This document shows, piece by piece, positions 40,443-56,756 of a DNA stretch of 64,000 nt. The stretch is from Dehalococcoidia bacterium (GTDB lineage Bacteria; Chloroflexota; Dehalococcoidia; UBA2979). The position numbers and the translations under genes were made by a program. Each line of letters opens with the position of its first letter. The first letter of the stretch is position 1. The DNA is taken from NCBI GenBank assembly GCA_964291495.2, contig OZ219871.1, forward strand, positions 704,001-768,000, written 5' to 3'. Under the pieces are notes generated by a model. The model did no database searches, was not told the DNA's origin, and saw nothing but the letters and a program-made list of their open reading frames with translations.

Positions 40443-40482
40443 CGCCGCAGCAATGACCGCCCAGCTGGAAGGAACCCAAATC

Positions 40483-41802
40483 GTGCGGAACATCATGGGA
40501 TTGCGGACGCTCGCGACCGCGCTGCTGCTCGCGCTCGCGCTCGCCGCGGCGGCGTGCGCGAGCGACGACGGCGATGACGGTGATGCCGGTGATGCCAGCC
40601 AGGCTGCGGCACAGCCTCCGCAAGTTGAGGAGCGTCTCCAGGTTGTCGCGTCCACCGGCATCATCGCCCACTTTGCCGAACAGATCGCCGGAGACGACGC
40701 CGACGTCGTGTCCGTGATCCCGCCGGGCGCGGACGCGCACAGCTTCACCCCCACCACCACCGCCATCCGCAACATCGCCGCCGCCGACCTCGTGATCGTC
40801 AACGGCTATAACCTCGAAGAGAGCACCCTGGCCACCATCTTCGAGAACCTGCCTGAGGATGCCACGCTCGTTGTCGCCACCGCCGGCATCGCCCCCCTCG
40901 AGGGCGGCCACCACCACCACGAGGACGAACACGGCCACGACGAGGACGAGGACGAACACGGCCACGACGAGGACGAGGACGAACACGGCCACGACGAGGA
41001 CGAGGACGGCCACGACCACGACGAGGACGAAGAAGGCCACGACGACGAAGAGGGCCACGACCACGACGAGGACGAGGACGGCCACGACGACGACGAAGAG
41101 GGCCACGACCACGACGAGGACGAAGAAGGCCACGACGACGACGAAGAGGGCCACGACCACGACGAGGACGAAGAAGGCCACGACGACGAAGAGGGCCACG
41201 ACCACGACGAGGACGAGGACGAGCACGGCCACGACGACGAGAAGATGAAGGTCGCCGCGGAGCACGAGCTCGCAGTCGCCGATGGCGACCCGCACATGTG
41301 GCTGACCGTCCCGAACGCGATGGTCTACGTGCGCAACATCGCCAACGCGATCGTCGCCGCCGACCCGGACAACGGCGCCGCCTACCGCGAGCGCGAGGCG
41401 GCCTACCTCGCCGAGCTACAGCAACTCGACGAGGAGGTGCGGGCCACAATCGCCGGCATTCCGGAGGAAAGCCGCGTGCTGATCGTCTACCACGACGCCT
41501 TCCAGTACTTCGCCGCCGAGTACGGGCTCGAGCTGGCCGCGTCCCTGCTGCCGGGTAACCCCTCGCAGCAGGCGAGCGCCGCCGCCGTCGCCGAGATCAT
41601 CGAGATCGTGGCCGGCCGCCAGGTCGGCGCCGTCTACCGCGAGCCGCAGTTCGCCGCGACCGCACTCGAGGCGATCGCTGAGGAGGCGGGCGTGCGCGCG
41701 CTGACGATCTACTCCGCCGCCTTCACGGACGAGGTCGACAGCTACGTCAAGCTGATGCGGGCGAACGCGGACGCGCTGGTCGAAGGGCTTGGCGGCGGGT
41801 AG
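40483..41802 (+). CDS. znuA: Zn/Mn ABC substrate-binding lipoprotein with very long His/acidic loop
   Basis: Lipobox AAAC, DAH, DPHMW and HDAF ligands, His/Asp/Glu insertion. Confidence 0.9.
   Translation: MRNIMGLRTLATALLLALALAAAACASDDGDDGDAGDASQAAAQPPQVEERLQVVASTGIIAHFAEQIAGDDADVVSVIPPGADAHSFTPTTTAIRNIAAADLVIVNGYNLEESTLATIFENLPEDATLVVATAGIAPLEGGHHHHEDEHGHDEDEDEHGHDEDEDEHGHDEDEDGHDHDEDEEGHDDEEGHDHDEDEDGHDDDEEGHDHDEDEEGHDDDEEGHDHDEDEEGHDDEEGHDHDEDEDEHGHDDEKMKVAAEHELAVADGDPHMWLTVPNAMVYVRNIANAIVAADPDNGAAYREREAAYLAELQQLDEEVRATIAGIPEESRVLIVYHDAFQYFAAEYGLELAASLLPGNPSQQASAAAVAEIIEIVAGRQVGAVYREPQFAATALEAIAEEAGVRALTIYSAAFTDEVDSYVKLMRANADALVEGLGGG
40909..41241 (+). repeat. Coding tandem repeats (GHD[H]DEDEE units)
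   Basis: Imperfect 21-27 bp units encoding about 111 aa of H/D/E/G only. Confidence 0.9.
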
Positions 41803-41832
41803 CGCTCGCAGGGCAGAGGGCGGAGCGGGCCG

Positions 41833-42654
41833 GTGACGTCTCATCGCGAGCCCACGCACACGTGTGGCCCGCTCGCGCTCGAGGTCAGCGGCCTCTGGGC
41901 CGGTTACCCCGGCAAGCCGCCTGCGATCGAGGACGTCAGCTTCGACGTCCCGCAGGGGGAGATGGTCGGCCTCGTCGGGCCGAACGGGGCCGGCAAGTCC
42001 ACGCTCTTCAAGTCGATCCTCGGCGTCATGCGTCCGCTGCTCGGCGAGGTGCGTGTCTTCGGGCGCCCCGTCTCGGAGACGCGGTCGGACGTCGCCTACA
42101 CCCCGCAGGTCGAGGAGGTCGACTGGGAGTTCCCGGTCAGCGTTCGCGACGTGGTGCTGATGGGCCGCTGGCGTGGGACCAGCCCGTTCCGTCGCTGGTC
42201 GCGCGAGGACCGCGAGGCCGCCGAGGACGCACTCGAGCGCGTCGGCCTCGCCGAGCTCTCCGGGCGGCAGGTCGGCGAGCTATCGGGCGGGCAGCGCCGC
42301 CGCGTGCTGATCGCCCGCTCGATCGCGCGAGGCGCGCGGCTGCTGCTGCTCGACGAGCCATTCGCCGGCCTCGACGCCGCCGTCGAGCACGACCTGCTCG
42401 TGATCCTCGGCGAGCTCACCCACGAGGGCTGCAGCATCCTGATCGCCACGCACGACATCTCCTGCGTTGCGAACGCCTGCCACGGGGCGTGCTGCCTGAA
42501 CCGCCGCGTGCAGGGCTACGGGCCGCCCGCCGACGTGCTCACCGAGGACGTGCTCTCGCGCACCTTCGAGCGCGCGCTCGTCCCGGTCGGCGCGGATCGC
42601 GAGTTCGTGGTCGCCGCGGGCACGGCGCCGCCCGGGCGGTCTGAGGGCGGATGA
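41833..42654 (+). CDS. znuC: Metal ABC transporter ATPase
   Basis: GPNGAGKST, LSGGQ, LDEP, Y.PQ...DWEFP, C.CLN. Confidence 0.9.
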   Translation: MTSHREPTHTCGPLALEVSGLWAGYPGKPPAIEDVSFDVPQGEMVGLVGPNGAGKSTLFKSILGVMRPLLGEVRVFGRPVSETRSDVAYTPQVEEVDWEFPVSVRDVVLMGRWRGTSPFRRWSREDREAAEDALERVGLAELSGRQVGELSGGQRRRVLIARSIARGARLLLLDEPFAGLDAAVEHDLLVILGELTHEGCSILIATHDISCVANACHGACCLNRRVQGYGPPADVLTEDVLSRTFERALVPVGADREFVVAAGTAPPGRSEGG

Positions 42655-43508
42655 TCGTGGAACTCGCGGAGTGGCTGATCGCGCCCTACGAGTACACGTT
42701 CATGCGACGCGCGCTCGGCTCGCTGCTGATCGTCAGCCTGGTCGGCTCGGTCGTCGGCACCTTCGTCGTGCACAAGGGGTTGGCGGCGTCGGGCAACGGG
42801 CTCGCGCACGCGACGCTGGGCGGAGTTGCGATCGCCTTCGTCAACGGCGCCAGCGTAGCGCTGGGCGCCCTCGCCGCGGCCGTCGCGACGGCGCTCGGCA
42901 TCGGCTACGCGCGGCGCACCTCGCGCGTCAGCTACGACACGGCGATCGCGATCTTCTTCGTCTCCGCTTTCTCGCTCGGCATCCTCGTGATCTCGCGCCG
43001 CTCGACCTACACGCCGGACCTCCTCTCCTTCGTGTTCGGCGACATCCTCGGCGTCTCGCGGGCGGACCTGGTCGGCGAGCTCGCGCTTGCCGTCGTCGTG
43101 ATCGGCTTCGTGCTCGCCTTCTACCGGGAGATGGTGATGGTCGCCTACGACCCCGGAATGGCGGCTGCGGCCGGGGTGCGGACTGGGTTCTTCGAATTCT
43201 CGCTGCTGGTCCTGATCGCGCTCGCAGTGGTGGTGGCGCTGCAGGCGATCGGCATCGTGCTGGTCACGGCGACGCTGATCATCCCGCCGGCGACGGCGAG
43301 CCTGCTGTTCCGGCGGATCCCGCTGATCATGGCGACAGGGTTCCTGATCGGCGCGGCCACCTCCGTGGCCGGCCTGTACGCCTCGTTCCACGCGGGCGTC
43401 GCCGCCAGTCCCGCCATCGTGCTCTCCGCGACGGCCACCTTCACCGTCGCGCTGCTGGCCACCTCGCTGCGCCGCACGCGCCTCCCGGCTCCCGCAACCG
43501 CCGAGTAG
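42651..43508 (+). CDS. znuB: Metal ABC transporter permease (ABC-3)
   Basis: FM.RAL, LAHATLGG, FGDILGV, LIIPPATA. Confidence 0.9.
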   Translation: MIVELAEWLIAPYEYTFMRRALGSLLIVSLVGSVVGTFVVHKGLAASGNGLAHATLGGVAIAFVNGASVALGALAAAVATALGIGYARRTSRVSYDTAIAIFFVSAFSLGILVISRRSTYTPDLLSFVFGDILGVSRADLVGELALAVVVIGFVLAFYREMVMVAYDPGMAAAAGVRTGFFEFSLLVLIALAVVVALQAIGIVLVTATLIIPPATASLLFRRIPLIMATGFLIGAATSVAGLYASFHAGVAASPAIVLSATATFTVALLATSLRRTRLPAPATAE

Positions 43509-44400: not shown

Positions 44401-45432
44401 CTACGGCAGCACGCCGGCCGAACGCAGCAGGCGCAGCGTGCCCTCGAGGTCCGCGAGGTCGCTCAGGTCGATCGGCGGCGGCTGCAGGTCGGCGATGGGC
44501 GTGAGGTGGGGGGCGCTCGGCACGCCCGCGATCAGCGGGTACTCGGAGTTCGTCTCCGCGTAGTAGCGCTGCGCCTCCTCGCCGAGCATGAACTCGAGGA
44601 ACTTCCGCGCCTCGTCGCTGCGGTCCGAGGTCTTGAGGACGCCGGCGCCCGCCACGTTGACGAGCGTGCCGATGTCCCCCGGGCCGGTGTGGTAGTTGCG
44701 CGCGGGGAAGCCCTCGCCCTCCTCGGCAAGGAAGCGGTGCAGGTAGTAGTGGTTGACGAGGCCGACGTCGACCTCGCCGCGGCCGACGGCGGCGACGATC
44801 GACACGTTGTTCGGGAACTCGGCCGCGTCGTTCGCCTTCATGCCCTCAAGCCAGGCGCGCGCGGCCTCCTCGCCCTCGCCGACGCGCAGCGCGGTGACCC
44901 ACGCCTGGAACGAGCCGTTGGCGGGCGCCCAGGCGACGCGGTCGCGCCACTTCGGGTCGGTCAGCTCGAGGATCGAGGTCGGCAGCTCGGAGGGCTCGAG
45001 GACGTCCGTGTTGTAGATCAGCACGCGCGCGCGGCCGGAGAGCCCGACCCACTGTCCCTCGCGCGAGCGGTAGGCCGACGGCACGAGGTCAAGGATGTCG
45101 TCGTCGAGGTCGGCGAACAGTCCGGCCGCCTGCACAGCGCCGAGCGCGCCCGCGTCCTGTGCGATGTAGAGGTCGGCCGGGCTCTGCTCGCCCTCCTCGA
45201 TGAGGAGCGCGGCGAGCTGGGCGGTGCCGCCGTAGCGCACCTTGACGTTGATGCCGGTCTCCTCGGCAAAGCGCTGGAGGAGGGGCCCGACCAGGTCCGG
45301 GCTGCGGCCCGAGTAGATCGTGAGCTCCCGCTCGTCATCGTCGCCGCAGCCGACGGCAAGCAGCGCGCCGGCCGCGGCGACCGCCAGCACCCCGATCGAC
45401 AGCAGCCGCAAGACACTTCCTCGTGACGTCAT
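44401..45432 (-). CDS. Fe3+ ABC substrate-binding lipoprotein (FbpA/FutA-like)
   Basis: Lipobox AVGC, IYSGR, EG..SPAD, W.GLSGRAR, VNHYY tandem Tyr ligands. Confidence 0.9.
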   Translation of the reverse strand: MTSRGSVLRLLSIGVLAVAAAGALLAVGCGDDDERELTIYSGRSPDLVGPLLQRFAEETGINVKVRYGGTAQLAALLIEEGEQSPADLYIAQDAGALGAVQAAGLFADLDDDILDLVPSAYRSREGQWVGLSGRARVLIYNTDVLEPSELPTSILELTDPKWRDRVAWAPANGSFQAWVTALRVGEGEEAARAWLEGMKANDAAEFPNNVSIVAAVGRGEVDVGLVNHYYLHRFLAEEGEGFPARNYHTGPGDIGTLVNVAGAGVLKTSDRSDEARKFLEFMLGEEAQRYYAETNSEYPLIAGVPSAPHLTPIADLQPPPIDLSDLADLEGTLRLLRSAGVLP

Positions 45433-45474
45433 CGCTACCCCGCAGAATTCGTCCCAGCCTACCAGCGTCAGACG

Positions 45475-45512
45475 TTGACACTATGACCATATATTAGGTT
45501 AGACTGCATTTC
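45475..45512 (+). promoter_or_regulatory. Promoter with DtxR/IdeR-like half-site in divergent intergenic region
   Basis: TTGACA at 45475. TTAGGTTAGACT at 45494 matches the left half of the DtxR consensus TTAGGTTAGGCTAACCTAA. AT-rich. Confidence 0.55.
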
Positions 45513-45586
45513 GGCATCAGTCCAGAGCCTTACGAGGTCATAGCGCGAATCGTACCACGGATCCCCTCCAAGCGAACAAGGGAGCA

Positions 45587-48500
45587 ATGCCTGGACTCAT
45601 GACGAACGTGGCAGGCAGCACAGGACAACTCCGGGGGCCCGCCCTGCTTGGCCGGCGCTCGCGCTGGCTCGTGGCGGCGCTGCTTACCGTCGTCGCCGCT
45701 GTCGTGGTCCTCCGCGCCGCCGATGGCGCGCTGCTGCGGGAGGGCATCGCCGAGCTGGCGAGGCGCCCCGCATTGCTCGCGCTCCTCTTCGGCGGCTACG
45801 CCGCAGCGTTCGTGCTGCGGGCGTTCGCCTGGCGCGTGCTGCTCGGGCGCGCCCGCGGAGGCGCAAGCAGCGGACGGCTGATCGCGATCCTCCACGCCGC
45901 CCTGCTCGCCAACCACGCGCTGCCCGTCAAGGCGGGCGAGCTGCTGCGACCGGCCCTCGCAGCCCGCGCCGGCATCCCGATCGCCGACGCGACCGTCTCG
46001 ACGGTCGTCGCCCGGGTGCTCGACATCGCCGCGCTGCTCGCGATCGCCGCCGCCCTGCTGCCGCTGACCGCGGGTGGGGATGGCGCGACGGTACTCGCCA
46101 TTCCGGCGCTGCTGCTCGCCGCCGTTGCCGTCGGGCTGCTCTGGTTCCGCGGCACGAGCCTCGCCGGAACCGGCTTCGAGATGTTCGACCGGCTCTGGAC
46201 GCACGCGCGTGACTCGCTCCGCGCGCTCCCGCTTCGCGCCGTCCTGGTCGCGTTCGCCATCACCGTGCCGGGCTGGCTGCTGGAGTCCGTCGTCCTCTAC
46301 GCGGCGGCGCAGGCGCTCGGCCTCGAACTCTCATTGCCAGCGGCAGCCGCGGTGACGGCGTTCACGATCCTCTTCCAGATCGTGCATCTCACGCCCGGCG
46401 GGATCGGCGTCTACGAGGCGAGCATGACCGCCGCCCTGCAGGCGCAGGGCATGCCGGGCGGCGAGGCGCTGACGCTCGCTGTGCTCACGCACGGGCTCAA
46501 GTTCGCCTACGCCTTCGGCCTCGGGGCGCCGCTCACGCTGCTCGCCGTCGGCGGGGTGCCGTCGCTCAGCCGCCTGCGCGGCAGCCGCGAGGACTCGAAG
46601 CGCGCCGGCCGCTTCGAGATCGTGGCGGCCCGGCTCTGGAACGTGCTCAACGAGGGCAAGCCGTTCACCCCCGTGTTCGTCGCCGGCGTGCTGCTGCTGC
46701 TCGGCCTCCCGCACTTCGCCGACGGCGGCTACTGGCTCAGGCAGCTGGTCGCACTCGTCGCGCTGCTGCCGCTGTTCGCCCTGTTCTATCGCTACGCCTT
46801 CCCGCTGCACCTGCGCGGCGGGTTGTGGGTGCTGCTCGCGGCCTGCCTCGCGCTGTTCCGCTTCATCGACGTGCAGGCGATCGCTCTCGTGTTCGCGTTG
46901 TACCTGGGCTTCACCGTCGTGCTCTGGGGCAGCGTCTACTACCACCTGCGCATCGGCACGCCGTGGACGAACGGGCTGCGTTTCTGGCGGCTCGTGCTCG
47001 AGAACCCGGACCCGACGAGCGGGAACTTCCTCGAGCAGGTTCCCAAGGTGCTCATCCTCGTGCTGCTCTCCGGCTTCCTCGTGGACCACCCGGGCCCGCT
47101 CTCGATCGCGGCCGTCGAGGCGTTCACGCTCGGCGCCGCCGTCCTCACCGTACTCACCCACCAGTGGTGGTTCACCTGGGCGCCGCCCGACCCACTGGCG
47201 CCGACGCGGCTGCGTAACGAGGGTGGCCCCGCGCTCTGCCGCCGCGTGATCCTGATCGTGATCGACGGCTGCCGCGCCGACCGGCTCGCCGAGGCGCGCA
47301 CGCCGTTCCTCGACCGTCTCGCCGCCGAGGGCCTCGCCTGCGAGGACATGCGCACGGTCTACCCGGCGCGCACGGTCACCGCGTTCACCTCGATGCTGAC
47401 GGGTGCGACGCCGCGCGTGCACGGCATGCGCAGCAACTTCGTGCCCTCGCTCGGCGCGAAGTGCGAGTCGATCTTCGACGTGCTGGAGCAGCGCGGCATG
47501 CGCGGCCGCCTCGCCGGCATCGCCCACCTCGTCGACTCGTTCGGCGAGGAGGCCGTCGAGACGGTCACCGCCGTCACGCCGAACGAGGAGATCGACGACG
47601 CGCTCGTCGCCCGCGCGCGCGAGGTCATGCGGCGCGACGACCCCGAGCTGCTGGTCCTGCAGACGCTGTCGGTCGACCAGACGGGCCACGCGCGCGGCAG
47701 CTACTACCCCGAGTACCTCGAGCGCATCGAGGCGACAGACCGGCTGCTCGAGGAGTTCGTGGGCTGGTGCCGCGCGGAGGGCTACCTCGACGGCGCGACG
47801 CTGATCGTGACCTCCGACCACGGACAGGGTCGCGGCATCGGCGGGCACGGCCACCTCACCGAGCCGGAGCGCCGCGTGCCCTTCATCGCCTGGGGCGAGG
47901 GCGTCCCGCGCGGCGTGCGCATCGAGGACGACCGGAGCCTGCTCGATGTCGCGCCGACGCTTGCGTACTACCTCGGGGTCCCGCCGCCGGCACGGTCGGT
48001 CGGCCAGGTGCTGTTCACGCCGGACGGCGTGCCGCCGCGCGACGACGGCCCGCTCGCGATCGTCATCCCGGCCTACAACGAGGCCGAGGTGCTGCCGGAG
48101 GTGCTCGCCCGCATCCCGCGCGCGCAGCTCGGCGAGACCGTTGCGATCGTGGTCGACGACGGCTCCGAGGACGGCACCGCCCTCGTCGCGGAACGCACGG
48201 GCGCGGACCTCGTGGTGCGGCACGAGCGCAATCGCGGCCTCGGTGCGGCGCTGCGCACGGGCCTCGAGACCGCGCGCGGGCTCAACGCGCGTGCCGCCGT
48301 CTACCTGGACGCCGACCTCGAGTATGACCCGGCGGAGATCCCGGCGCTGCTCGCGCCGATCGAGGCCGGCGAGGCGGACTACGTCCTCGGCTCGCGCTTC
48401 CTCGGACGCCGCGAGGGGCACGCGCTGTGGCGCTCCTCGGGCAACCGGGTCTTCACGCTGGCGCTGAGCTTCGCCGCCGGCCGGCGCATCTCCGACGGGC

Positions 48501-48724
48501 AGACGGGGTTCCGCGCCTTCTCGGCGCGGGCGCTCAACGTGGCGGAGATCGTCCACGACTACAACTACGCGCAGGTCCTCACGCTGGACCTGCTGCACAA
48601 GGGGATGCGCCTCGCCGAGGCGCCGATCTCCTACCGCAGCCGCACCCGCGGCCGCTCATTCATCAACGGGCACTACCTCTGGCGCGTGCCACTCGGCATG
48701 GCGCGGGAGTTGTTGGGCAGTTAG
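45587..48724 (+). CDS. Fusion: LPG-synthase-TM/flippase-like domain + membrane module + alkaline-phosphatase-superfamily domain + GT2 glycosyltransferase
   Basis: NHALPVKAGELLR and TPGGIGVYE (flippase-like). IVIDGCRAD, PARTV, DQTGH, TSDHG (AlkP). IPAYNE, VDDGSED, DAD, SDGQTGFRA (GT2). Single uninterrupted ORF. Confidence 0.88.
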   Translation: MPGLMTNVAGSTGQLRGPALLGRRSRWLVAALLTVVAAVVVLRAADGALLREGIAELARRPALLALLFGGYAAAFVLRAFAWRVLLGRARGGASSGRLIAILHAALLANHALPVKAGELLRPALAARAGIPIADATVSTVVARVLDIAALLAIAAALLPLTAGGDGATVLAIPALLLAAVAVGLLWFRGTSLAGTGFEMFDRLWTHARDSLRALPLRAVLVAFAITVPGWLLESVVLYAAAQALGLELSLPAAAAVTAFTILFQIVHLTPGGIGVYEASMTAALQAQGMPGGEALTLAVLTHGLKFAYAFGLGAPLTLLAVGGVPSLSRLRGSREDSKRAGRFEIVAARLWNVLNEGKPFTPVFVAGVLLLLGLPHFADGGYWLRQLVALVALLPLFALFYRYAFPLHLRGGLWVLLAACLALFRFIDVQAIALVFALYLGFTVVLWGSVYYHLRIGTPWTNGLRFWRLVLENPDPTSGNFLEQVPKVLILVLLSGFLVDHPGPLSIAAVEAFTLGAAVLTVLTHQWWFTWAPPDPLAPTRLRNEGGPALCRRVILIVIDGCRADRLAEARTPFLDRLAAEGLACEDMRTVYPARTVTAFTSMLTGATPRVHGMRSNFVPSLGAKCESIFDVLEQRGMRGRLAGIAHLVDSFGEEAVETVTAVTPNEEIDDALVARAREVMRRDDPELLVLQTLSVDQTGHARGSYYPEYLERIEATDRLLEEFVGWCRAEGYLDGATLIVTSDHGQGRGIGGHGHLTEPERRVPFIAWGEGVPRGVRIEDDRSLLDVAPTLAYYLGVPPPARSVGQVLFTPDGVPPRDDGPLAIVIPAYNEAEVLPEVLARIPRAQLGETVAIVVDDGSEDGTALVAERTGADLVVRHERNRGLGAALRTGLETARGLNARAAVYLDADLEYDPAEIPALLAPIEAGEADYVLGSRFLGRREGHALWRSSGNRVFTLALSFAAGRRISDGQTGFRAFSARALNVAEIVHDYNYAQVLTLDLLHKGMRLAEAPISYRSRTRGRSFINGHYLWRVPLGMARELLGS

Positions 48725-48761
48725 CCAGAGCGCCACCCGGCGCGGAGGGAGGAATCGAGTC

Positions 48762-50042
48762 ATGAGAGTGGCATTGGCAGGCCTGCGCACGGTCGCGGCG
48801 TTCGTGGTCCTCGCAGCACTGGCGGCGCTTGTCGCCGCCTGCGACGGCGACGATGGCGAGGACCGGCCGGGCACGGTGGAGGTCGTCGACGGGGGATCGG
48901 CGTCGGTATCGGCCTCCGTCTCCGGTGTCAGCGGGTCCGTCTCCGGCACGGGGACTGGCACGGGCACGGCGACCGGCTCCGTTTCCGGCACGGGGACCGG
49001 CACGGGCACGGCGACCGGCTCGGCGACCGGAACCGGCACGGGCACGGCGACCAGGGCTGACGAGCGGGGCCTCTTCATCCCGGTGGGTCAGCCTGCCGAG
49101 ACGGAAGGCCCTACCAGGTCGGACGGCTACTACTACCCCACGACGAACCGGGAGATCTACCAGAAGATCGCCTCGGACTACCAGGAGATCGCCTCACTCA
49201 CCAACGTGATCAAGGATGGCGAACCCTTGCCCGCGGCGGAGATCTGGCTGCTCTATGAAGCTGGTCCGCACACCCGCATCGGCAACCAGAGCCGGACACT
49301 CCGCAGCTTCGCAGCTGGCACCACGCCGGGCCGCTATTTCCCGGATGCCGCGGAGTTCTACGGGTCCGGCACGTTCCTCGACAGCCCGATCCAGAACGCA
49401 GTGCGCCAGCGCGGCGACGCGGCGGACTACACCGACGCGCAACGGCGTCAGGCCATCAACAAGGGCATCCTCCGGGTCCTCTACCACTGGTCCAAGTTCT
49501 ACATGATCATCGGCGGCGACTTCATGCGATCCGGCCTCGTGGACGAGGCATGGGCCGTCTACGTCGGCGAGGAAGTCGACGGCGAGTACCCGAACTCGCT
49601 GGCTGCCCTGGCCCGGTCGCGGGAGGGCAACTTCGGCAGGGAAGGGACGCTGGACGTTCCCCTCCGCGAGGCGATGGAGCAAGCCCGGCAGGCGGCCGAC
49701 GCGGGGGACGAAGCGGCCTACGCAAGCGCGGCGCGGGACGTGTACTCGCGATTCAACGCCATCTTCTACCTGGCAACCGTGCGGTACATCGGCATCGCGC
49801 AGGAAGACGTACAGAACGGCGACGACCCGGGCACGCACCAGGTTGAAGCGCTGGCGTTCTACCAGTCGATCCAGCCCGAGGTCGCCAGGGCCGACCCGGC
49901 TGCCGACGAGACGATCATCGCCTACCTCACGGCTGAGCCGGACCAGGTCACGGCTGCGTCGCGGGACGCGGCTCTGGCCGCGCTCAACAGGACGGCGGAG
50001 GCCCTCCTGCTGAAGCAGAGCGACCTGGTGGCGAGCTACTAG
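48762..50042 (+). CDS. Lipoprotein with Gly/Ser/Thr linker and FEA1 (low-iron-inducible protein)-like domain
   Basis: Lipobox LVAAC. DEAWAVY, SREGNFG and EALAFY...PEV resemble the FEA1/ISIP2a family (from recall, not searched). Confidence 0.65.
   Translation: MRVALAGLRTVAAFVVLAALAALVAACDGDDGEDRPGTVEVVDGGSASVSASVSGVSGSVSGTGTGTGTATGSVSGTGTGTGTATGSATGTGTGTATRADERGLFIPVGQPAETEGPTRSDGYYYPTTNREIYQKIASDYQEIASLTNVIKDGEPLPAAEIWLLYEAGPHTRIGNQSRTLRSFAAGTTPGRYFPDAAEFYGSGTFLDSPIQNAVRQRGDAADYTDAQRRQAINKGILRVLYHWSKFYMIIGGDFMRSGLVDEAWAVYVGEEVDGEYPNSLAALARSREGNFGREGTLDVPLREAMEQARQAADAGDEAAYASAARDVYSRFNAIFYLATVRYIGIAQEDVQNGDDPGTHQVEALAFYQSIQPEVARADPAADETIIAYLTAEPDQVTAASRDAALAALNRTAEALLLKQSDLVASY
48933..49052 (+). 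repeat. Coding direct repeat GSVSGTGTGTGTAT x2 plus a partial copy
   Basis: 42-bp units at 48933-48974 and 48975-49016. Confidence 0.85.
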
Positions 50043-50126: not shown

Positions 50127-50945
50127 ATGAAGATCACCATCGCGGGCTACGGCTCGATCGGCCACTACGTCGCCGACCTGTTCCGCGACCTCGAGCCTGC
50201 CCTCTACGACCCGCCGCTCGGCCTCGGCACGGTCGAGGATCTGCGCGACACGGACTTCGTGATCGTCTGCGTACCGACGCCGCCCCTGCCCTCCGGCGCG
50301 TGCGACACCTCCATCGTCGAGGAAGTCGTGAGGCTCGCCGATCCGCGCGTGGCGATCGTCTGTCACAGCACGGTCGCCGTCGGCACGACGGAGCGGCTGA
50401 TCGCGGGGACGGGGAAGCCGATCGTCTTCGTCCCCGAGTACGCGGGCGAGGCGGACGATCATCCGCTGCGCAACCCCGCGAACCGCCGCTTCCTGATCTA
50501 CGGCGGCCACGAGCCCGCGACGTCCGCCGTACAGGCGCTCTACGAGCAGGCGTACGGACCCGGCCTGCGGCACTTCCGCGTGGCCCCGACGCTCGCCGAG
50601 GTCGTGAAGTACATGGAGAACGCCTTCCTCGCCGCGAAGGTCGCGTTCTGCAACGAGTTCTTCGACCTCTGCAACGCGGCGGGCGTGGACTACGAGTGGG
50701 CCCGCCTGCTCTGGCTGCAGGACGATCGCATCAACCCCAGCCACACCGTCGTCACCGAGGAACGCGGCTACGGCGGGCAGTGCCTGCCCAAGGACGTGGC
50801 CGCGGTCTGCGACGCCGGACGCGAGCTGGGCGCGCCGATGGCGATCCTCGAGGCGGTCCAGGCGGCGAACGTGCGGCATCGAATCAGCGGCGCGAGCGCG
50901 GCGGCGGCCGCGCTGCCCGCCGCTGCGGGGGTACAGGGAAGATGA
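50127..50945 (+). CDS. UDP-glucose/GDP-mannose dehydrogenase family, lacking the C-terminal domain
   Basis: GYGSIG, CVPTP, STV..GTT, PE, KY.EN, GYGGQCLPKD catalytic Cys. Only 272 aa. Confidence 0.85.
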   Translation: MKITIAGYGSIGHYVADLFRDLEPALYDPPLGLGTVEDLRDTDFVIVCVPTPPLPSGACDTSIVEEVVRLADPRVAIVCHSTVAVGTTERLIAGTGKPIVFVPEYAGEADDHPLRNPANRRFLIYGGHEPATSAVQALYEQAYGPGLRHFRVAPTLAEVVKYMENAFLAAKVAFCNEFFDLCNAAGVDYEWARLLWLQDDRINPSHTVVTEERGYGGQCLPKDVAAVCDAGRELGAPMAILEAVQAANVRHRISGASAAAAALPAAAGVQGR

Positions 50946-51436
50946 ACGGCCGACGCATGAAGATCGGCGGCATGAGCCGCTGCGACTGCGGGCGCCACAC
51001 CTGGCTGGTGCTCCACGAACGCGAAGGCGAGACGCACGTCTGGCTGCGCGTTCACGCGGACCTCGCCAGCTGGTTCACGCCGGACCACGGCGGCATCACG
51101 CGCCTCGTCCGGGCCCTCGGCGACGTGCTGCAGGGCATCGGCCAGGAGCCGCGCGCCGTGATCGTCAGCTACGACGCGAAGCGCCGCATCCGGCTGCGCC
51201 TGCGCCTCGCCGGGAGCGTCGGCGAGACCGACGTCGAGTGCGAGCCGGGGGTCGCGCTGCTCGCCGCCGAGCGGATCGGGCTGCCGATCCTGCTGCAGTC
51301 GGCAGCACCCGACGGCGATTCGCCGGCGCGTCCCGCCGAGCCGGCGAAGACCGCGATCCCCGAGGTCTACCGCGAGGCGCTGGCTGAGCTGGGGCTGCTG
51401 GAAGGGGCGCCGGACTGCCTGGACCGGCTCGACTGA
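50942..51436 (+). CDS. Hypothetical protein, degenerate DUF151/bifunctional-nuclease-like
   Basis: ATGA overlap with the dehydrogenase. N-terminal CDC..H. C-terminal V.C.P..ALLAA...GLPI pattern. Confidence 0.55.
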   Translation: MNGRRMKIGGMSRCDCGRHTWLVLHEREGETHVWLRVHADLASWFTPDHGGITRLVRALGDVLQGIGQEPRAVIVSYDAKRRIRLRLRLAGSVGETDVECEPGVALLAAERIGLPILLQSAAPDGDSPARPAEPAKTAIPEVYREALAELGLLEGAPDCLDRLD

Positions 51437-52872
51437 TTCGACGGCGCGGGCGGCCCCCGGCGTCCCGCGCGGGGACGCCAGGTGAGAGCCGCCCACGCCG
51501 CCAGGGCGAGGCCTCCGAGGCCAAGCCAGGCGACGGTGAGCAGCCACGTTTCGGTCGTCCACGAGGTGTACTGCGGGAACAGTCCGGCCACGCCCCGGAA
51601 GAACACGGCCTGTAGCTCGAACGGGTCGACCGCGATCACGACCTCGCGCGAGCGGCCGGCCTCGGCGAGCGCCGCCGTCACGGCGAGCGAGTAGACGCCG
51701 AGCGCCACGAGCGCGGCGCGCCAGGCACGACCGCCCCTCGAGGCGACGAGGACGAGCGGGATCGGCAGCAGCGGGAAGACCGTCACGAGCGTGCGGCCGG
51801 GGAACCACCAGCCCATCATCGTGATTACGACGAAGGTCGCGATCAGCACCTGCACGGCGACGAGGCCCAGCACGAGGCGCTGCCTCTCGTCGCCGCGCGC
51901 CAGCAGCAGCAACCCCGGCACGACGGCGAGCAGCAGCGGCGCCCAGCGCGCGACGCCGAAACGCCGGTCGATCAGCAGCCCCCACAGCCGGTAGACCCGA
52001 TCGCCGAACTCGACGTGCTCCCCGACGATCGTGGCCGTGGAGCCGCCCGCGTAGACGAGGTTCACGTTGTACGGCGTGAGCGACTCATAGGTCACGAGGT
52101 GGAACGCGCCGTAGACGAGCCCGGAGACGGCCCCGCCTCCGAGGAGCACGAGCCGCCCTCGGGGTTCGGCGCGCCAGAGGACGTAGAGCGCGACCAGCGC
52201 GGCGAGCGGCGCGTACTTCGCGCCCAGCCACGGCAGCGCGGAGAGCAGCAGCACCAGCACCAGCACCCGACCGGCCGGGAGGCGCTCGCGCCCCGTCGCG
52301 ACGAGCAGCGCCCCCACGAGCGCGAGGGCGGCAGGTACCTCGGGATAGACCTCGGAGGAGTAGATAAACGCCGTCGCGCTGAGGGCAACGGCGGCTGTCG
52401 CCAGCCAGACCGGCAGCGGCCGCGCCTCGGTCAGCCGCAGCGCGAGCAGGTAGGCGAGCGCCCAGGTCAGCGCCGCGATCAGCACGAGTTGGAGCTGTGC
52501 CCCCGCCAGCCCAGTGAGGGCGAACCCCGGCAGGAGCAGCACGGAAAGCCCGACGTTGTGCGGGCTCAGCACCCGTCCGTCCTCGAGCGGGACGGACTGC
52601 GTCCACAGCCCGTCGCGATGGTCGAAGAACGACTCGTACGAGCGCGTCGCGTACTGCTCGCGGAGATCGAGGTTCCCGTCCTCCAGCAGGCTCTGCGTCG
52701 TGATCAGGTAGAACGGTTCATCGCCGGTGATCGAGGCGCCTCGGCTGGCGCGGATGTCGATCGACGTGCTGTAGACGACGGCCAGCAGTGCAAAGAGCGC
52801 GATCGCCCCGGCCATGCCCGGCCGGGCGCGGGCGAGTTGCGCCAGTGAGCCTGTCGCGTCCGTCAGTCGCAC
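51367..52872 (-). CDS. Polytopic membrane protein, GT-C-fold glycosyltransferase-like
   Basis: TM1 followed by GDEPFYL acidic loop, YPE, more than 10 TM segments, late GR motif. GGAGAG before GTG 52872. Confidence 0.7.
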   Translation of the reverse strand: MRLTDATGSLAQLARARPGMAGAIALFALLAVVYSTSIDIRASRGASITGDEPFYLITTQSLLEDGNLDLREQYATRSYESFFDHRDGLWTQSVPLEDGRVLSPHNVGLSVLLLPGFALTGLAGAQLQLVLIAALTWALAYLLALRLTEARPLPVWLATAAVALSATAFIYSSEVYPEVPAALALVGALLVATGRERLPAGRVLVLVLLLSALPWLGAKYAPLAALVALYVLWRAEPRGRLVLLGGGAVSGLVYGAFHLVTYESLTPYNVNLVYAGGSTATIVGEHVEFGDRVYRLWGLLIDRRFGVARWAPLLLAVVPGLLLLARGDERQRLVLGLVAVQVLIATFVVITMMGWWFPGRTLVTVFPLLPIPLVLVASRGGRAWRAALVALGVYSLAVTAALAEAGRSREVVIAVDPFELQAVFFRGVAGLFPQYTSWTTETWLLTVAWLGLGGLALAAWAALTWRPRAGRRGPPAPSNQSSRSRQSGAPSSSPSSASASR

Positions 52873-53011
52873 GGCGCTCTCCGGGAGGATTGACGCGCAA
52901 TCGAGGGCTCCTCGGGACCCCTCACGCCGCCATTGTCGCACCACTGGCGGGATTGCCACCGCGTCGCGACCCACGCGCGCCTTCGAGCGCGTGCCGCGCG
53001 AAACGACACGC

Positions 53012-53121: not shown

Positions 53122-53934
53122 TCAGCGCAGCTTCCACTCGGGCGGGCGCCTCTCGGCAAAGGCCCTCGGGCCTTCGATCGAGTCTTCCATCGCCTCGACC
53201 TTGTCGAACAGGGCGAGCCCGAAGCGCTGCGCCCAGTGATCGTCCTGGAAGAGGTAGCGGTAGATGAGCTCCTTGTGCGTCCAGACCGAGACCGGGCCCA
53301 TCTCGCAGACCTCCTCGGCCCACTGGATGGCTTCGTCGAGCAGTTGCTCCCTCGGCACGACCTTGTTGACCCAGCCGACCTCGTACATCCGCTGAGCGGT
53401 GTATTGCCGTGCACCCCACAGGGTCATCTCCATGACCATTGCGGGCGGAATCATGCGTGCCGCCTGCGCCATGAACGACGCCGGGAGGTTCCAGCGCACC
53501 TCCGGAACCCCGAACATCGCGTGCTCCGCAGCGATGCGCACATCGCAGATCTGGGAGAGGAACCAGCCCCCTGCCACGGCGAAGCCGTTGACCGCGCCGA
53601 TGATCGGCTTCCAAAACTCGTGGTCCACCGGGGCGAGCTTGGCCCAGCCACCCTGATCGTCGACGTACTGGACGAAGCCGCCCTCGTACTCCTCGTCCAG
53701 CTCGGCGCGATCCTTGAGGTCCTCGCCGGCGCAGAAGAAGCGGTCACCCACCGCGGTCAGGATCACAGCCCAGATTTCGTCGTCGGCCTTGAGCCGCGGC
53801 CACTCCTGAGCAAGGCGGCGCGCGAGGTCGAAGTTGATCGAGTTCCCGCGCTCCTCGCGGTTCACGGTCAGCACCGCATAGTGCTTCTCCGGCACCCGCT
53901 CGACGAGCAGCACGTCATCTCCGCGTATCGCCAT
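53122..53934 (-). CDS. Enoyl-CoA hydratase/isomerase family protein
   Basis: FCAGEDL, KPIIGAVNGFAVAGG, FGVPEV, EGPRAFAERR.P.W. Confidence 0.92.
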   Translation of the reverse strand: MAIRGDDVLLVERVPEKHYAVLTVNREERGNSINFDLARRLAQEWPRLKADDEIWAVILTAVGDRFFCAGEDLKDRAELDEEYEGGFVQYVDDQGGWAKLAPVDHEFWKPIIGAVNGFAVAGGWFLSQICDVRIAAEHAMFGVPEVRWNLPASFMAQAARMIPPAMVMEMTLWGARQYTAQRMYEVGWVNKVVPREQLLDEAIQWAEEVCEMGPVSVWTHKELIYRYLFQDDHWAQRFGLALFDKVEAMEDSIEGPRAFAERRPPEWKLR

Positions 53935-53958
53935 GTCGTCCCTCCCCGGGTTCCGCAC

Positions 53959-54408
53959 TCACTCCCGCGAGGGGAGCAGCACGGTGCCTTGCGCCGGTGT
54001 CGCAACCCCCTCGCGGTCGTTTGCGATCGAGAGCTCGATCTCGACGGCGTTGCCGTCGTCGGTCTGTTCCTTGGCGACCACCTTGCCGCTCACTGTGATG
54101 GTGTCGTCCGGCATGTTCATGCGCCGCATCTCGAAGTGCAGCCTGCGCACCCAGCCCTCCGGTCCGGCAAAGTCTGCGAGGAGTCGGTAGAGCTGCGCGC
54201 GCGTCCAGCCGGTGTTGTAGAAGACGGTGCGGTGCCCTCCCGACTGCGCAAACGGCGGGTCGTGATGCACCGCGTAGAAGTCCTGCGAGCCGCTCACCTG
54301 TTTGACCATCTCCGTCCAGTCGAGCGGGTAGGAGAAGCCCGGCAGTTCGTCGCCCACGCTCACGTCCTCGAAGTAGATCTGCGGTAGCGGGTCCAGCTTG
54401 ACGGCCAT
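53959..54408 (-). CDS. MaoC-like dehydratase
   Basis: YFEDV.VG, QDFYAVHHD (Asp/His hydratase motif), LPSR end. Confidence 0.87.
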   Translation of the reverse strand: MAVKLDPLPQIYFEDVSVGDELPGFSYPLDWTEMVKQVSGSQDFYAVHHDPPFAQSGGHRTVFYNTGWTRAQLYRLLADFAGPEGWVRRLHFEMRRMNMPDDTITVSGKVVAKEQTDDGNAVEIELSIANDREGVATPAQGTVLLPSRE

Positions 54409-54432
54409 CGCCGTGCTCCCTCGTCTGTGGGC

Positions 54433-55008
54433 CTACGCCGCGTGCAGCCCGAGCGGGTCGGGGTTGGCCTCGACCTCCTCGGGCGCGCGGTGGCGCAGGC
54501 TCGTGTTGCGGCTGATCGCGACGAGCTCGTCGTCCTGGTTGTAGAAGCGCGTCTCGTCGATGATCCAGATCGCGTTCGGGTCGAGGCCGATCGGCTTGAC
54601 GAAGACGTCCGCGATCGAGGGCTGCAACCAGAGCCTGTCGCCGATCTTGATGGCCTTCAAGAACTCCCACGTCGTGCTGAGGTTGATCGCCCGATCGCCG
54701 ATTACGGGAACGTCGAGGTCCTCGTTGTCGGGCGCCGGGATATCGGGGCCGCCGTTCCAGTTTGGCCACGTCCCGTCGCCGGCGAAGTAGTCGGCCATCA
54801 CGCCGGGGGCGATGTTGTCGCCGTACTGGCTGTTCCGCCCGTACTCGGGGTCGATGAACAGCGGGTTCCTCCCGTAGCACATGTGCTCATGACGGCGGAT
54901 CGGATCATGCTCCACCGGGTAGAGGCCATCCTTCCGCTCGCCCGTTCGTCCTATGTACCGCTCCCGGATCTGGTCGATGTCGTAATCGGCCGCTGCTACC
55001 TTCGGCAT
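54433..55008 (-). CDS. MaoC N-terminal-type hot-dog protein
   Basis: VE...IRR, NPLF.D.EY, IAP, WEF...I..GD.L, YNQ..ELV. Confidence 0.85.
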   Translation of the reverse strand: MPKVAAADYDIDQIRERYIGRTGERKDGLYPVEHDPIRRHEHMCYGRNPLFIDPEYGRNSQYGDNIAPGVMADYFAGDGTWPNWNGGPDIPAPDNEDLDVPVIGDRAINLSTTWEFLKAIKIGDRLWLQPSIADVFVKPIGLDPNAIWIIDETRFYNQDDELVAISRNTSLRHRAPEEVEANPDPLGLHAA

Positions 55009-55059
55009 TGACTCCCCCTCACCCGACGCCACGCACGGGCGCCGGCTCACCGGCGCCGC

Positions 55060-55530
55060 TTAGATGTACGCCCAGTGCACCAGCGAGTACGGGGGGTCGT
55101 GATCGGGGTGGTGCTCGAACACCGCCTCGACCTCGGCGCCGATGACGACGTCTCCCTCCGGCTCGCCGAGCAGGTTCCCGAGCATGCGGATGTTCCCGGC
55201 CTGCGGGAGCTCGACGAGGACAACCACGTACGGCACTGCCTCGACGAGCGCCGGGTGCACCGGATGCCACGCGCGCTCCCAGGAGTAGATTCGCCCGCGC
55301 GGCTCCACCTCCCGCCACTCGAGGTCGTACGTGTGACAGCTGTAGCAGAGCCACTCCGGGCCCCACTGCCATACCTCGCAGGAGGGGCAGAACTGAACCA
55401 GCAGCTCGTTGCGGGCGGCGCCCTCCCAGTAGGGGCGGTCGAGCTCGTTCATCAACGGCACCGGGAACGCCGGAGCCTCGGCGAAGTATGCGCCGCCGGC
55501 CTGGATCTCGGACCTCGTCGCGTTGGCCAT
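55060..55530 (-). CDS. DUF35 Zn-ribbon/OB-fold protein
   Basis: PYWEG, CPSC...CYSC, GRIYSW, PYVVVLVEL. Confidence 0.9.
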   Translation of the reverse strand: MANATRSEIQAGGAYFAEAPAFPVPLMNELDRPYWEGAARNELLVQFCPSCEVWQWGPEWLCYSCHTYDLEWREVEPRGRIYSWERAWHPVHPALVEAVPYVVVLVELPQAGNIRMLGNLLGEPEGDVVIGAEVEAVFEHHPDHDPPYSLVHWAYI

Positions 55531-55540
55531 CGTTCGTTCC

Positions 55541-56713: not shown

Positions 56714-56756
56714 CTGCCCCTCCAATCGCTGCTCGTGCAGACCCGTTGTTCTCCGC

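Follow-up and report, generated by a model that had tools for sequence, protein, structure and literature searches.

In the Arn pathway, ArnC makes a sugar linked to undecaprenyl phosphate, the deformylase ArnD modifies it before flipping, the SMR-type ArnE/F flips it, and the GT-C enzyme ArnT transfers the sugar to lipid A. The Gac system of Streptococcus pyogenes includes GacH, an alkaline phosphatase (AlkP)–superfamily glycerol phosphate transferase that tailors a sugar supplied by a GT2 enzyme, a flippase, and a GT-C enzyme, and that affects zinc tolerance, according to the accessible part of its description (10.1101/337519). Archaeal UPF0104 genes lie in a neighborhood with AglD-like GT2 and PMT/STT3-like genes, for which a logic of GT2, then flipping, then GT-C was proposed in the available sections of Makarova et al. 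(2015, PMC5898192), and the available text on GpgSDF of Pseudomonas aeruginosa describes a synthase, a cytoplasmic modifier, and a UPF0104 flippase, and cites HexSDF of C. difficile (PMC12713373). Here we describe a single open reading frame (ORF), P0001, in a 64,000-nucleotide stretch of a Dehalococcoidia bacterium genome (GCA_964291495.2, contig OZ219871.1, positions 704,001 to 768,000 of the forward strand; the whole stretch is hereafter the window). It joins a PplT-type flippase-like domain, six membrane helices, an AlkP-fold domain, and a GT2 domain, lies among iron-uptake genes, and carries its AlkP domain on what is predicted to be the cytoplasmic face. The ORF and its modules are as follows.

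45587..48724, + strand: fusion ORF P0001, a single open frame of 1045 codons plus stop.
45587..46573, + strand: module 1, amino acids (aa) 1–329, PplT/MprF-type flippase-like domain (PF03706 match at aa 28–309; AF2 helices).
46574..47221, + strand: module 2, aa 330–545, juxtamembrane helix plus six membrane helices (hydropathy, alignment, AF2).
47243..48031, + strand: module 3, aa 553–815, NPP-type alkaline-phosphatase-fold domain with predicted nucleophile T596 (Pfam, fold search).
48053..48721, + strand: module 4, aa 823–1045, GT2 of the polyprenyl-phosphate-glycosyltransferase type (Pfam, NCBIfam, Foldseek).

The locus resembles the GacI/GacJ/GacK/GacL set plus GacH, which builds the GlcNAc side chain of the group A carbohydrate, in having four function classes and a membrane AlkP enzyme with a Thr nucleophile; both are tied to metals, phospho-decoration in Gac altering zinc handling according to its description, whereas the locus here is one of iron uptake and not of a rhamnose polymer. 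GacH is described there as LtaS-like, with a single metal, 11 membrane helices, and an outward face, whereas the unit here is predicted to be NPP-like, with two metals, six helices, and a cytoplasmic face. The flippase is also of the PplT rather than the Wzx type of Gac, and three functions sit in one chain. The AglD-type arrangement likewise has a dolichyl- or polyprenyl-phosphate GT2 joined or adjacent to a PF03706 domain with a GT-C-like gene nearby, as far as the accessible text goes, but here the order is reversed, with PplT N-terminal, and the six-helix AlkP unit is inserted between; an iron-uptake link is not mentioned for that neighborhood in the available sections of PMC5898192. GpgSDF and HexSDF likewise handle a lipid-linked sugar, in the sections available, by means of a synthase, a modifier, and a UPF0104 flippase, although the GpgSDF cargo is there a glycosylated phospholipid, the synthase a GT4 enzyme, and the modifier a deacetylase, with no GT-C and no AlkP-fold enzyme. 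MprF, as partly documented, also has an N-terminal PF03706 domain followed by a cytoplasmic cargo-making enzyme (Lys-PG synthase), yet the enzyme partners are entirely different. Arn matches in its GT2, its cytoplasmic modification before flipping, and its GT-C step outside, and the GT2 domain finds its best fold match in ArnC; unlike here, the Arn parts are separate proteins, the modifier is a deformylase, the flippase is SMR-type, and the target is lipid A. A literature search, with most subscription journals outside its coverage, found no paper describing the architecture. A PplT survey preprint lists 148 domain architectures, and its accessible text makes no mention of alkaline phosphatase, phosphodiesterase, sulfatase, or iron. 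The novel elements are the anchor-NPP unit, predicted to face inward and recurring as a fusion partner, and a link to iron uptake.

The initial annotation, made from the sequence alone, had described one ORF with intact motifs for each domain, and this is confirmed by the 1045-codon frame, by Pfam matches above cut-offs for three domain classes in the one ORF, and by the retention of catalytic residues. Orthologs at 77–95% identity (loci L001, L002, L007, L012, L013, and L017) match residues 1–1045 over the full length. Stops that would split the ORF were not seen in public sequencing runs: contigs from run X1 are letter-identical to the window over six pieces of 45400–49295, those from run X2 over 46957–48603, and the only insertions or deletions in read contigs are a compensating +1/−1 pair, 4 bases apart, in a divergent contig, leaving no net frameshift and a sound frame. 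Run X1 may be the sample of origin and is thus not independent support; the other runs hold small shares only. Contigs from an RNA library (X23) are 90–95% alike to the gene and do not demonstrate transcription of the window gene. The whole-protein AF2 model has a pLDDT of 88.7 and a pTM of 0.71.

Six hydrophobic helices at about aa 360–525 lie between the flippase-like and AlkP domains (hydropathy, AF2), and aa 553–800 match PF01663 Phosphodiest (E 8.4e-26), PF00884 Sulfatase, and PF01676 Metalloenzyme above cut-offs. The Thr of the PARTV motif had been proposed as nucleophile, correctly as far as alignment can tell: T596 (YPARTVT) aligns with the nucleophile position of Xanthomonas (Xac) NPP (2gsn; similarity E 5e-12), as do the remaining metal ligands with theirs. 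In an alignment of 46 rows, 39–42 of which have a residue at the AlkP sites, D560, T596, N617, D697, H701, D744, H745, H754, and H756 are kept in 39–41 rows, with 0–2 exceptions per site. By these residues the domain is of the NPP branch, with Thr as nucleophile, the Asn typical of NPPs, and six ligands for a predicted two-metal site. In P0001 the nucleophile is followed by Val; Xac NPP has Phe there, which stacks on the base of the nucleotide, so that the aromatic residue of the NPP nucleotide pocket is missing. Three tied best matches emerged from the fold search: NPP7 (Z 30.8; root mean square deviation 2.3 Å over 261 aligned residues), PafA (Z 30.6), and Xac NPP (Z 30.4); NPP1, NPP3, and NPP4 are also among the fold relatives, and the membrane phosphotransferases scored lower (PbgA 23.2, LtaS 22.9, MCR-1 20.7). 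The wide search of the unit covered model residues 217–486 only, and the anchor was barely included.

The helices and the AlkP domain behave as one entity. Folded alone, aa 330–815 gave a pLDDT of 92.6 and a pTM of 0.91, and in this model the six-helix anchor and the AlkP domain form one rigid unit. In layout it resembles LtaS, EptA, and GacH: several N-terminal helices form the anchor, and the catalytic domain with its Thr nucleophile comes after them. The juxtamembrane-helix motif ARLWNVLNEGK and the loop between helices 4 and 5, ENPDxTSGNxLEQxPK, are near-invariant from Bacteria to Asgard archaea, and W351, N352, and E356 of the former are kept in all 41 rows having a residue there. When aa 330–550 were searched alone against 1.84 billion representative proteins, 109 clusters were found at E ≤ 0.001, and in complete proteins the six-helix module always stands directly before an AlkP domain; it was never seen apart from one. 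The initial annotation had suggested that the RLWNVLNEGKPFTP module is a separate gene in Firmicutes clusters near iron permeases. The separate-gene part does not stand, as the module is the N-terminal membrane part of an AlkP protein in the complete proteins that show it, and the iron-permease part does, as the Bacillus operon holds an FTR1 gene. The suggestion that the AlkP domain processes a nucleotide or sugar-phosphate intermediate found no support; the invariant lipid-side anchor argues instead for a lipid-linked phosphate ester as substrate, and by analogy the unit probably acts on a membrane-lipid phosphate ester.

The AlkP and GT2 domains had been placed on the same, presumably cytoplasmic, face with no membrane segment between them, and three independent sequence arguments uphold this. 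Continuity is the first of them: after aa 525 no 19-residue stretch reaches a hydropathy of 1.5, the AF2 model has only alpha/beta structure there, and because a nucleotide-sugar-dependent GT2 follows the AlkP domain without a membrane helix, both domains are expected in the cytoplasm. The anchor loops of all 38 aligned rows carry 8–17 Lys plus Arg residues on the AlkP side and 0–2 on the other side, and the same positive-inside bias is found in stand-alone Bacillaceae and Rubrobacteraceae forms, which are free of the GT2 constraint. Protein P0150 (1100 aa), with six helices, AlkP, and GT2, has exactly one membrane helix after the GT2 and then a further domain, 31–32% identical (E about 1e-33) to a Bacillaceae operon protein that has both a signal peptide and an anchor at its C terminus. 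By predicted topology the AlkP and GT2 domains thus face the cytoplasm, and the unit is inverted relative to the outward-facing AlkP transferases; the external catalytic domain of the LtaS/EptA/GacH type was not found in sequence-based topology. To our knowledge, every known membrane-anchored AlkP-superfamily transferase faces outward. For GacH and LtaS an outward face is given in the accessible part of 10.1101/337519.

Module 1 matches PF03706 LPG_synthase_TM at aa 28–309 (E 1.3e-36, 127 bits against a cut-off of 33.4, profile positions 2–298 of 302) and is by profile a member of the PF03706/PplT (UPF0104) family, for which lipid translocation is predicted only. The loop that follows it (aa 328–359) contains 8 Lys or Arg residues. 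The GT2 domain matches PF00535 at aa 825–983 (E 1.8e-25), its best Foldseek matches are ArnC (9asc, E 8.4e-11, target-normalized TM-score 0.58) and DPMS (5mlz, E 2.3e-10), and the motifs DD857/858, D908xD910, and D970...G974-F-R976 are kept in 35–37 alignment rows (D908xD910 in 35). The best NCBIfam matches, AglJ, PpgS, and dolichyl-phosphate hexose transferase, reach 91, 78.8, and 72.7 bits against cut-offs of 325, 370, and 375, so the domain looks like a polyprenyl-phosphate glycosyltransferase and belongs to no named equivalog. GtrB, ArnC, and archaeal DPMS carry C-terminal membrane helices of their own. The GT2 domain of P0001 has none, ending in an amphipathic helix (hydropathy, AF2), and its membrane attachment must therefore come from the fused modules.

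The fusion is not rare and belongs to a family of hundreds. A word-indexed search found 759 proteins at E ≤ 0.001 among 8000 candidates; the 120 homologs listed are 57–100% identical and 907–1149 aa long, and 119 of them, the query included, carry PF03706, AlkP families, and PF00535. The few with names are called "hypothetical protein" or [quoted passage not shown] and come from Dehalococcoidia. A scan of species-representative genomes gave 65 related loci, 32 of which have a single ORF of at least 1000 aa by our own ORF calls. The view of P0001 as a Rosetta-stone fusion is supported: the modules occur as separate adjacent genes in Bacillaceae and in further combinations elsewhere. Four Bacillaceae loci have three adjacent genes in the order of the fusion (312, 485, and 264 aa in Bacillus sp. 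AFS041924), named by the annotation pipeline "LPG synthase TM domain-containing protein," "alkaline phosphatase family protein," and "GT2 family protein." Rubrobacteraceae have two genes, anchor-AlkP followed by GT2, and three Asgard loci have a DedA(VTT)-anchor-AlkP gene (711 aa) followed by genes for a DUF6541 membrane protein and a GT2, in that order. The forms containing the unit are these.

Anchor plus AlkP: about 480–510 aa.
Six helices, AlkP, and GT2: about 720–760 aa.
PplT, six helices, and AlkP: 845 aa.
DedA, six helices, and AlkP: 711 aa.
All four modules: about 1045 aa.

The stand-alone unit is common, with at least 1236 proteins at E ≤ 1e-30 in many Bacillaceae genera, all with generic names; cultivable carriers of the split operon include Peribacillus simplex, Peribacillus asahii, and Bacillus methanolicus. 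PplT-GT2 proteins without the AlkP unit (540–650 aa) occur in some Chloroflexota and Actinomycetota, and in other PplT-GT2 proteins (747–818 aa) a nonhomologous spacer of about 190 aa takes its place; one such protein has a GT2 57% and a PplT domain 41% identical to those of the window. Two proteins with a spacer are the following.

L068:1707-3950, − strand: PplT-GT2 protein of 747 aa with a spacer of about 190 aa that has no similarity to the window unit.
L038:5704-8160, + strand: PplT-GT2 protein of 818 aa with a spacer of about 190 aa.

Since some relatives carry the PplT-GT2 core alone, the AlkP unit can be dispensed with, often as it is inserted there. In a midpoint-rooted tree of anchor-AlkP sequences (38 rows, several long branches), full support is given to one clade each of Asgard, Bacillaceae, and Actinomycetota forms, and the four-module forms cluster with support of 90/90. 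The PplT-anchor-AlkP protein P0180 is placed apart from the four-module forms, a position that hints at more than one fusion event. A same-genus genome (L004, 6001-9073; G092:C1:552073-555555) has its AlkP match split over two reading frames, with an ORF call of 1463 aa and no separate FEA1-like ORF, probably owing to a frameshift or an assembly indel.

An iron-type neighbor is present in 48 of the 65 related loci, a GT-C-like neighbor in 43, and both in 38, where neighbor genes come from our own ORF calls and clusters and their labels from scans of a few members per cluster. The iron-type neighbors are FEA1/phytotransferrin-like lipoproteins, Fe-type ABC parts, FTR1, and EfeO/EfeB types. They differ by lineage: Chloroflexota loci have a FEA1-like lipoprotein with an ABC binding protein, permease, and ATPase, some of them also with a cupredoxin-like protein, imelysin plus DyP, ferrochelatase, or ferritin; Rubrobacteraceae loci have imelysin, DyP peroxidase, and FTR1; and Bacillaceae loci have a FEA1-like lipoprotein and FTR1. 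This variation is the strongest argument that the link to iron is functional. Among 121 evenly sampled genomes of the class, 5 carry the AlkP unit (4 strong matches) and 7 carry FEA1-like genes. All four strong AlkP-unit loci adjoin iron-type genes (FEA1-like in G000, G092, and G069; FTR1 plus a cupredoxin-like gene in G010), and five of the six intact FEA1-like loci adjoin a PplT-(AlkP)-GT2 gene.

The window itself has the following features around P0001.

45475..45514, + strand: divergent promoter region, TTGACA followed by a 21-base element beginning TTAGGTTAG, conserved in 5 close relatives.
44401..45432, − strand: divergent solute-binding protein of the Fe(III)/AEP/thiamine type (SBP_bac_6), cluster c1, recurrent in related loci.
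48762..50042, + strand: downstream FEA1-related lipoprotein P0121 (NF038033 match).
50127..50945, + strand: P0232, nucleotide-sugar-dehydrogenase-like protein of 272 aa (TIGR03026, E 5.2e-39).
51367..52974, − strand: P0231, convergent polytopic membrane protein of 535 aa, candidate GT-C glycosyltransferase.

P0121 matches NF038033 with an E value of 1.1e-34 and 119.8 bits against a cut-off of 250 (profile positions 4–403 of 406); by profile score it is a relative of that family and not a member by the rule of NCBI. FEA1 itself serves iron assimilation in algae and is a distant relative of the diatom phytotransferrin ISIP2a, according to the available part of PMC7676907. P0121 is the sole FEA1-like gene in the window's genome (93.7% complete), in which no FTR1 was found and only one of the three PF03706 genes, this one, is fused. 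BLASTP of P0121 against the Bacillus lipoprotein gave only a 19-residue match (E 0.046); it is through NF038033 that the two are linked. In the closest relatives, 27–33 of the 80 residues after the lipid-anchor Cys of the FEA1-like lipoprotein are Ser or Thr. P0121 and its relatives share a GEDRPG-VEV motif after the lipobox Cys, followed by an extended (GS/GT)n linker in which SVSxSG recurs; the FEA1-like proteins of L023 and L035 reach about 810 aa.

P0232 covers TIGR03026 profile positions 72–303 of 413, thus lacking the C-terminal nucleotide-binding domain, and retains GGxCxPKD, which we take to be the catalytic-Cys motif. Its short length (264–316 aa) is conserved in 17 Chloroflexota loci, the window included (cluster c4). 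Of the four Bacillaceae loci, three have a full-length homolog (440–456 aa) and all have a GalE/TviC-like epimerase; dehydrogenase-like and epimerase genes in the Bacillaceae loci hint that the sugar handled may be a uronic acid. P0231 stands where GT39, PMT_2, or DUF6541 genes stand in other lineages (the Bacillus gene is annotated GT39, and the Rubrobacteraceae gene reaches 29.4 bits for PMT_2 against a cut-off of 26.1) and is a probable GT-C-type glycosyltransferase by position and by an NCBIfam match, below cut-off, to the LA_3751/LA_3752 putative glycosyltransferase (E 4.6e-8). Its Atlas matches are "hypothetical" clusters, one with PMT in 12% of members, and a profile search against solved structures returned nothing. 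The C-terminal part of P0150 was considered as a P0231 relative, and comparison found no likeness. That part has its homolog in a 251-aa "hypothetical protein" with a signal peptide and C-terminal anchor, encoded between the GT2 and FTR1 genes in four Bacillaceae loci; in P0150 it is fused behind the GT2 through one membrane helix. From these sequence features the 251-aa protein is likely a further outer-face component.

L052:9172-9927 (Bacillus sp. AFS041924): 251-aa hypothetical protein, no family match.

TTGACA and TTAGGTTAGACTGCATTTCGG are identical in five close relatives while the flanking bases vary. The first nine bases of TTAGGTTAGACTGCATTTCGG match the half-site of the IdeR/DtxR iron-box consensus (12 of 19 overall), which is a lead only; the iron-box-like pattern has a single occurrence in the window, and at least one match arose in 15 of 100 shuffles. 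No inverted repeats were found in the promoter region, and a consensus scan found neither a promoter site nor a convincing terminator. Just upstream is a ZnuA/ZnuC/ZnuB-type metal ABC operon (window 40453–43508, + strand), whose ZnuA has 449 aa against 263 profile positions, which implies a long insert. On the other side, window 53122–57908 (− strand) encodes an unrelated set of enoyl-CoA hydratase, MaoC-like dehydratase, ChsH2/DUF35-type OB-fold, thiolase-like, and family III CoA-transferase proteins.

On balance, and somewhat ahead of even chances, we read P0001 as the single-chain donor factory of a multi-component lipid-carrier glycosylation system serving an iron-uptake locus. The C-terminal GT2, on the cytoplasmic face, would load a sugar from a nucleotide sugar onto polyprenyl phosphate, and its fold and closest families make a polyprenyl-phosphate sugar its likely product. 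The six-helix NPP-type AlkP unit would act at the inner leaflet on a lipid-linked phosphate ester, an optional tailoring or accessory module, frequent as it is, of a PplT/GT2/GT-C core. It may decorate the polyprenyl-phosphate sugar, inside the cell and before flipping, with a phospholipid-derived phospho-substituent by LtaS/EptA/GacH chemistry; this exact role is a preferred guess, made by analogy, and a tentative one. The N-terminal PplT domain would then move the lipid-linked sugar, or the spent carrier, across the membrane, a step that is reasonably likely by analogy with MprF, AglD, and the DedA swap in Asgard archaea. A separate GT-C-type enzyme (P0231 here; GT39, PMT_2, or DUF6541 elsewhere) would transfer the sugar outside the cell, to the Ser/Thr-rich linker of the FEA1-like Fe(III)-binding lipoprotein or to another surface part of the iron importer; that the lipoprotein is the acceptor is a possibility we hold at somewhat below even. 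That the system works in iron acquisition we consider quite probable.

Several points weigh against this reading. Every functional step, be it activity, substrate, or acceptor, is inferential. The evidence for the lipoprotein linker as acceptor is weak, as the Bacillaceae FEA1-like lipoproteins lack such a Ser/Thr-rich linker (9–12 of 80 residues). The AlkP fold is closer to soluble NPP/PafA hydrolases (Z about 30) than to LtaS, PbgA, or MCR-1, and because of this a plain hydrolase is at least as natural as a transferase; the core is also present without AlkP in L040, L050, L058, L068, and L069. The GT-C call on P0231 draws on a weak NCBIfam match, a weak hhalign comparison with a GT39/PMT_2 set (probability 15%), and position, and none of the 16 members of its cluster has a Pfam match. 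Seventeen of the 65 loci, including 3 Asgard and 5 Microthrixaceae/Iamiaceae PplT-GT2 loci, have no iron-type neighbor, some of them on short contigs; the loci are interrelated, so that the counts overstate independence, and few members per neighbor cluster were scanned against family libraries.

Other roles for the AlkP unit start from the same fold, and two of them, carrier-lipid hydrolase and nucleotide pyrophosphatase, are serious rivals. As a carrier-lipid hydrolase it would turn polyprenyl diphosphate into polyprenyl phosphate for the GT2 or hydrolyze unused polyprenyl-phosphate sugar, which would suit its nearness to hydrolytic NPP and PafA enzymes, its complete two-metal site, its cytoplasm-facing position with a conserved lipid-side anchor, and its fusion to a DedA/VTT domain in Asgard archaea, the DedA/VTT family being proposed polyprenyl-phosphate recyclers. 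GT-C reactions with polyprenyl-monophosphate sugars release the monophosphate, however, so that such a cycle needs no pyrophosphatase, and the core works without the unit in some relatives; we regard this role as unlikely. A nucleotide pyrophosphatase beside the GT2, removing inhibitory nucleoside diphosphate or controlling nucleotide-sugar supply, comes near the intermediate-processing idea of the initial annotation. Its appeal lies in the relatives (Xac NPP, NPP1, NPP3, and NPP4) and in the direct fusion to GT2 through a short linker, but Val replaces the Phe of Xac NPP, a six-helix anchor with invariant polar motifs on the catalytic side would be purposeless for a soluble substrate, and anchor and AlkP are never apart, which leaves it a slightly poorer prospect still. 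Lipid remodeling without a polyprenyl carrier would have AlkP cut a phospholipid head group, GT2 glycosylate diacylglycerol or phospholipid, and PplT flip the glycolipid, in the way proposed for GpgSDF. All three activities would be at the inner leaflet, NPP7, an alkaline sphingomyelinase of phospholipase-C-like action, is a tied top fold match, and PplT domains with phospholipid and glycolipid cargo are known from the accessible parts of PMC12713373 and the preprint. The GT2, however, is nearest to ArnC, DPMS, AglJ, PpgS, and dolichyl-phosphate hexose transferase, a GT-C-type gene, requiring a lipid-phosphate-sugar donor, is found in 43 of 65 loci, and the setting is iron uptake and not phosphate starvation; this scheme we consider improbable.

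The reading of P0001 as a glycosylation donor factory for iron uptake also has to withstand two objections to its premises. The adjacency to iron genes might reflect shared regulation or gene-island history, with glycosylation serving a general envelope glycan, as the loci without an iron-type neighbor and the Asgard loci beside mismatch-repair and other unrelated genes would allow; yet three bacterial phyla whose iron transporters differ all show this adjacency, and the class sample holds it in both directions despite the rarity of both gene types, so that we give this account a small chance. An AlkP domain facing outward, like LtaS, EptA, and GacH, would agree with the orientation of the known membrane-anchored AlkP transferases, insofar as the accessible sources describe them, and PbgA does align over 528–535 columns. 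That superposition, however, has a root mean square deviation of 16–17 Å, meaning that the halves are arranged differently, while the positive-inside counts agree in 38 of 38 rows, no membrane helix precedes the nucleotide-sugar-dependent GT2, and P0150 points to the cytoplasm; an outward face is therefore very improbable.

The natural fusions and splits are gene-level evidence that PplT, a largely presumed flippase family, works with a polyprenyl-phosphate glycosyltransferase, and the replacement of PplT by DedA in Asgard archaea bears on the cargo of both families. They also define a small, sharply bounded family (109 representative clusters) of membrane-anchored NPP-like enzymes predicted to face inward. 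Pushed to its furthest, and as speculation that we think unlikely to hold in full, high-affinity Fe(III) uptake through FEA1/phytotransferrin-like lipoproteins in single-membrane bacteria would need a dedicated surface glycosylation pathway, the six-helix NPP unit would be the first cytoplasm-facing membrane AlkP phosphotransferase, adding an anionic phospho-substituent before flipping, and the glycan on the lipoprotein linker would help to concentrate iron at the membrane. The loci suggest that envelope glycosylation is tied, in a way not recognized before, to iron acquisition by FEA1-like, FTR1, and EfeO/EfeB-type systems in Chloroflexota, Actinomycetota, and Bacillota, and since the split form is found in many cultivable Bacillaceae, the idea is directly testable by ordinary genetics.

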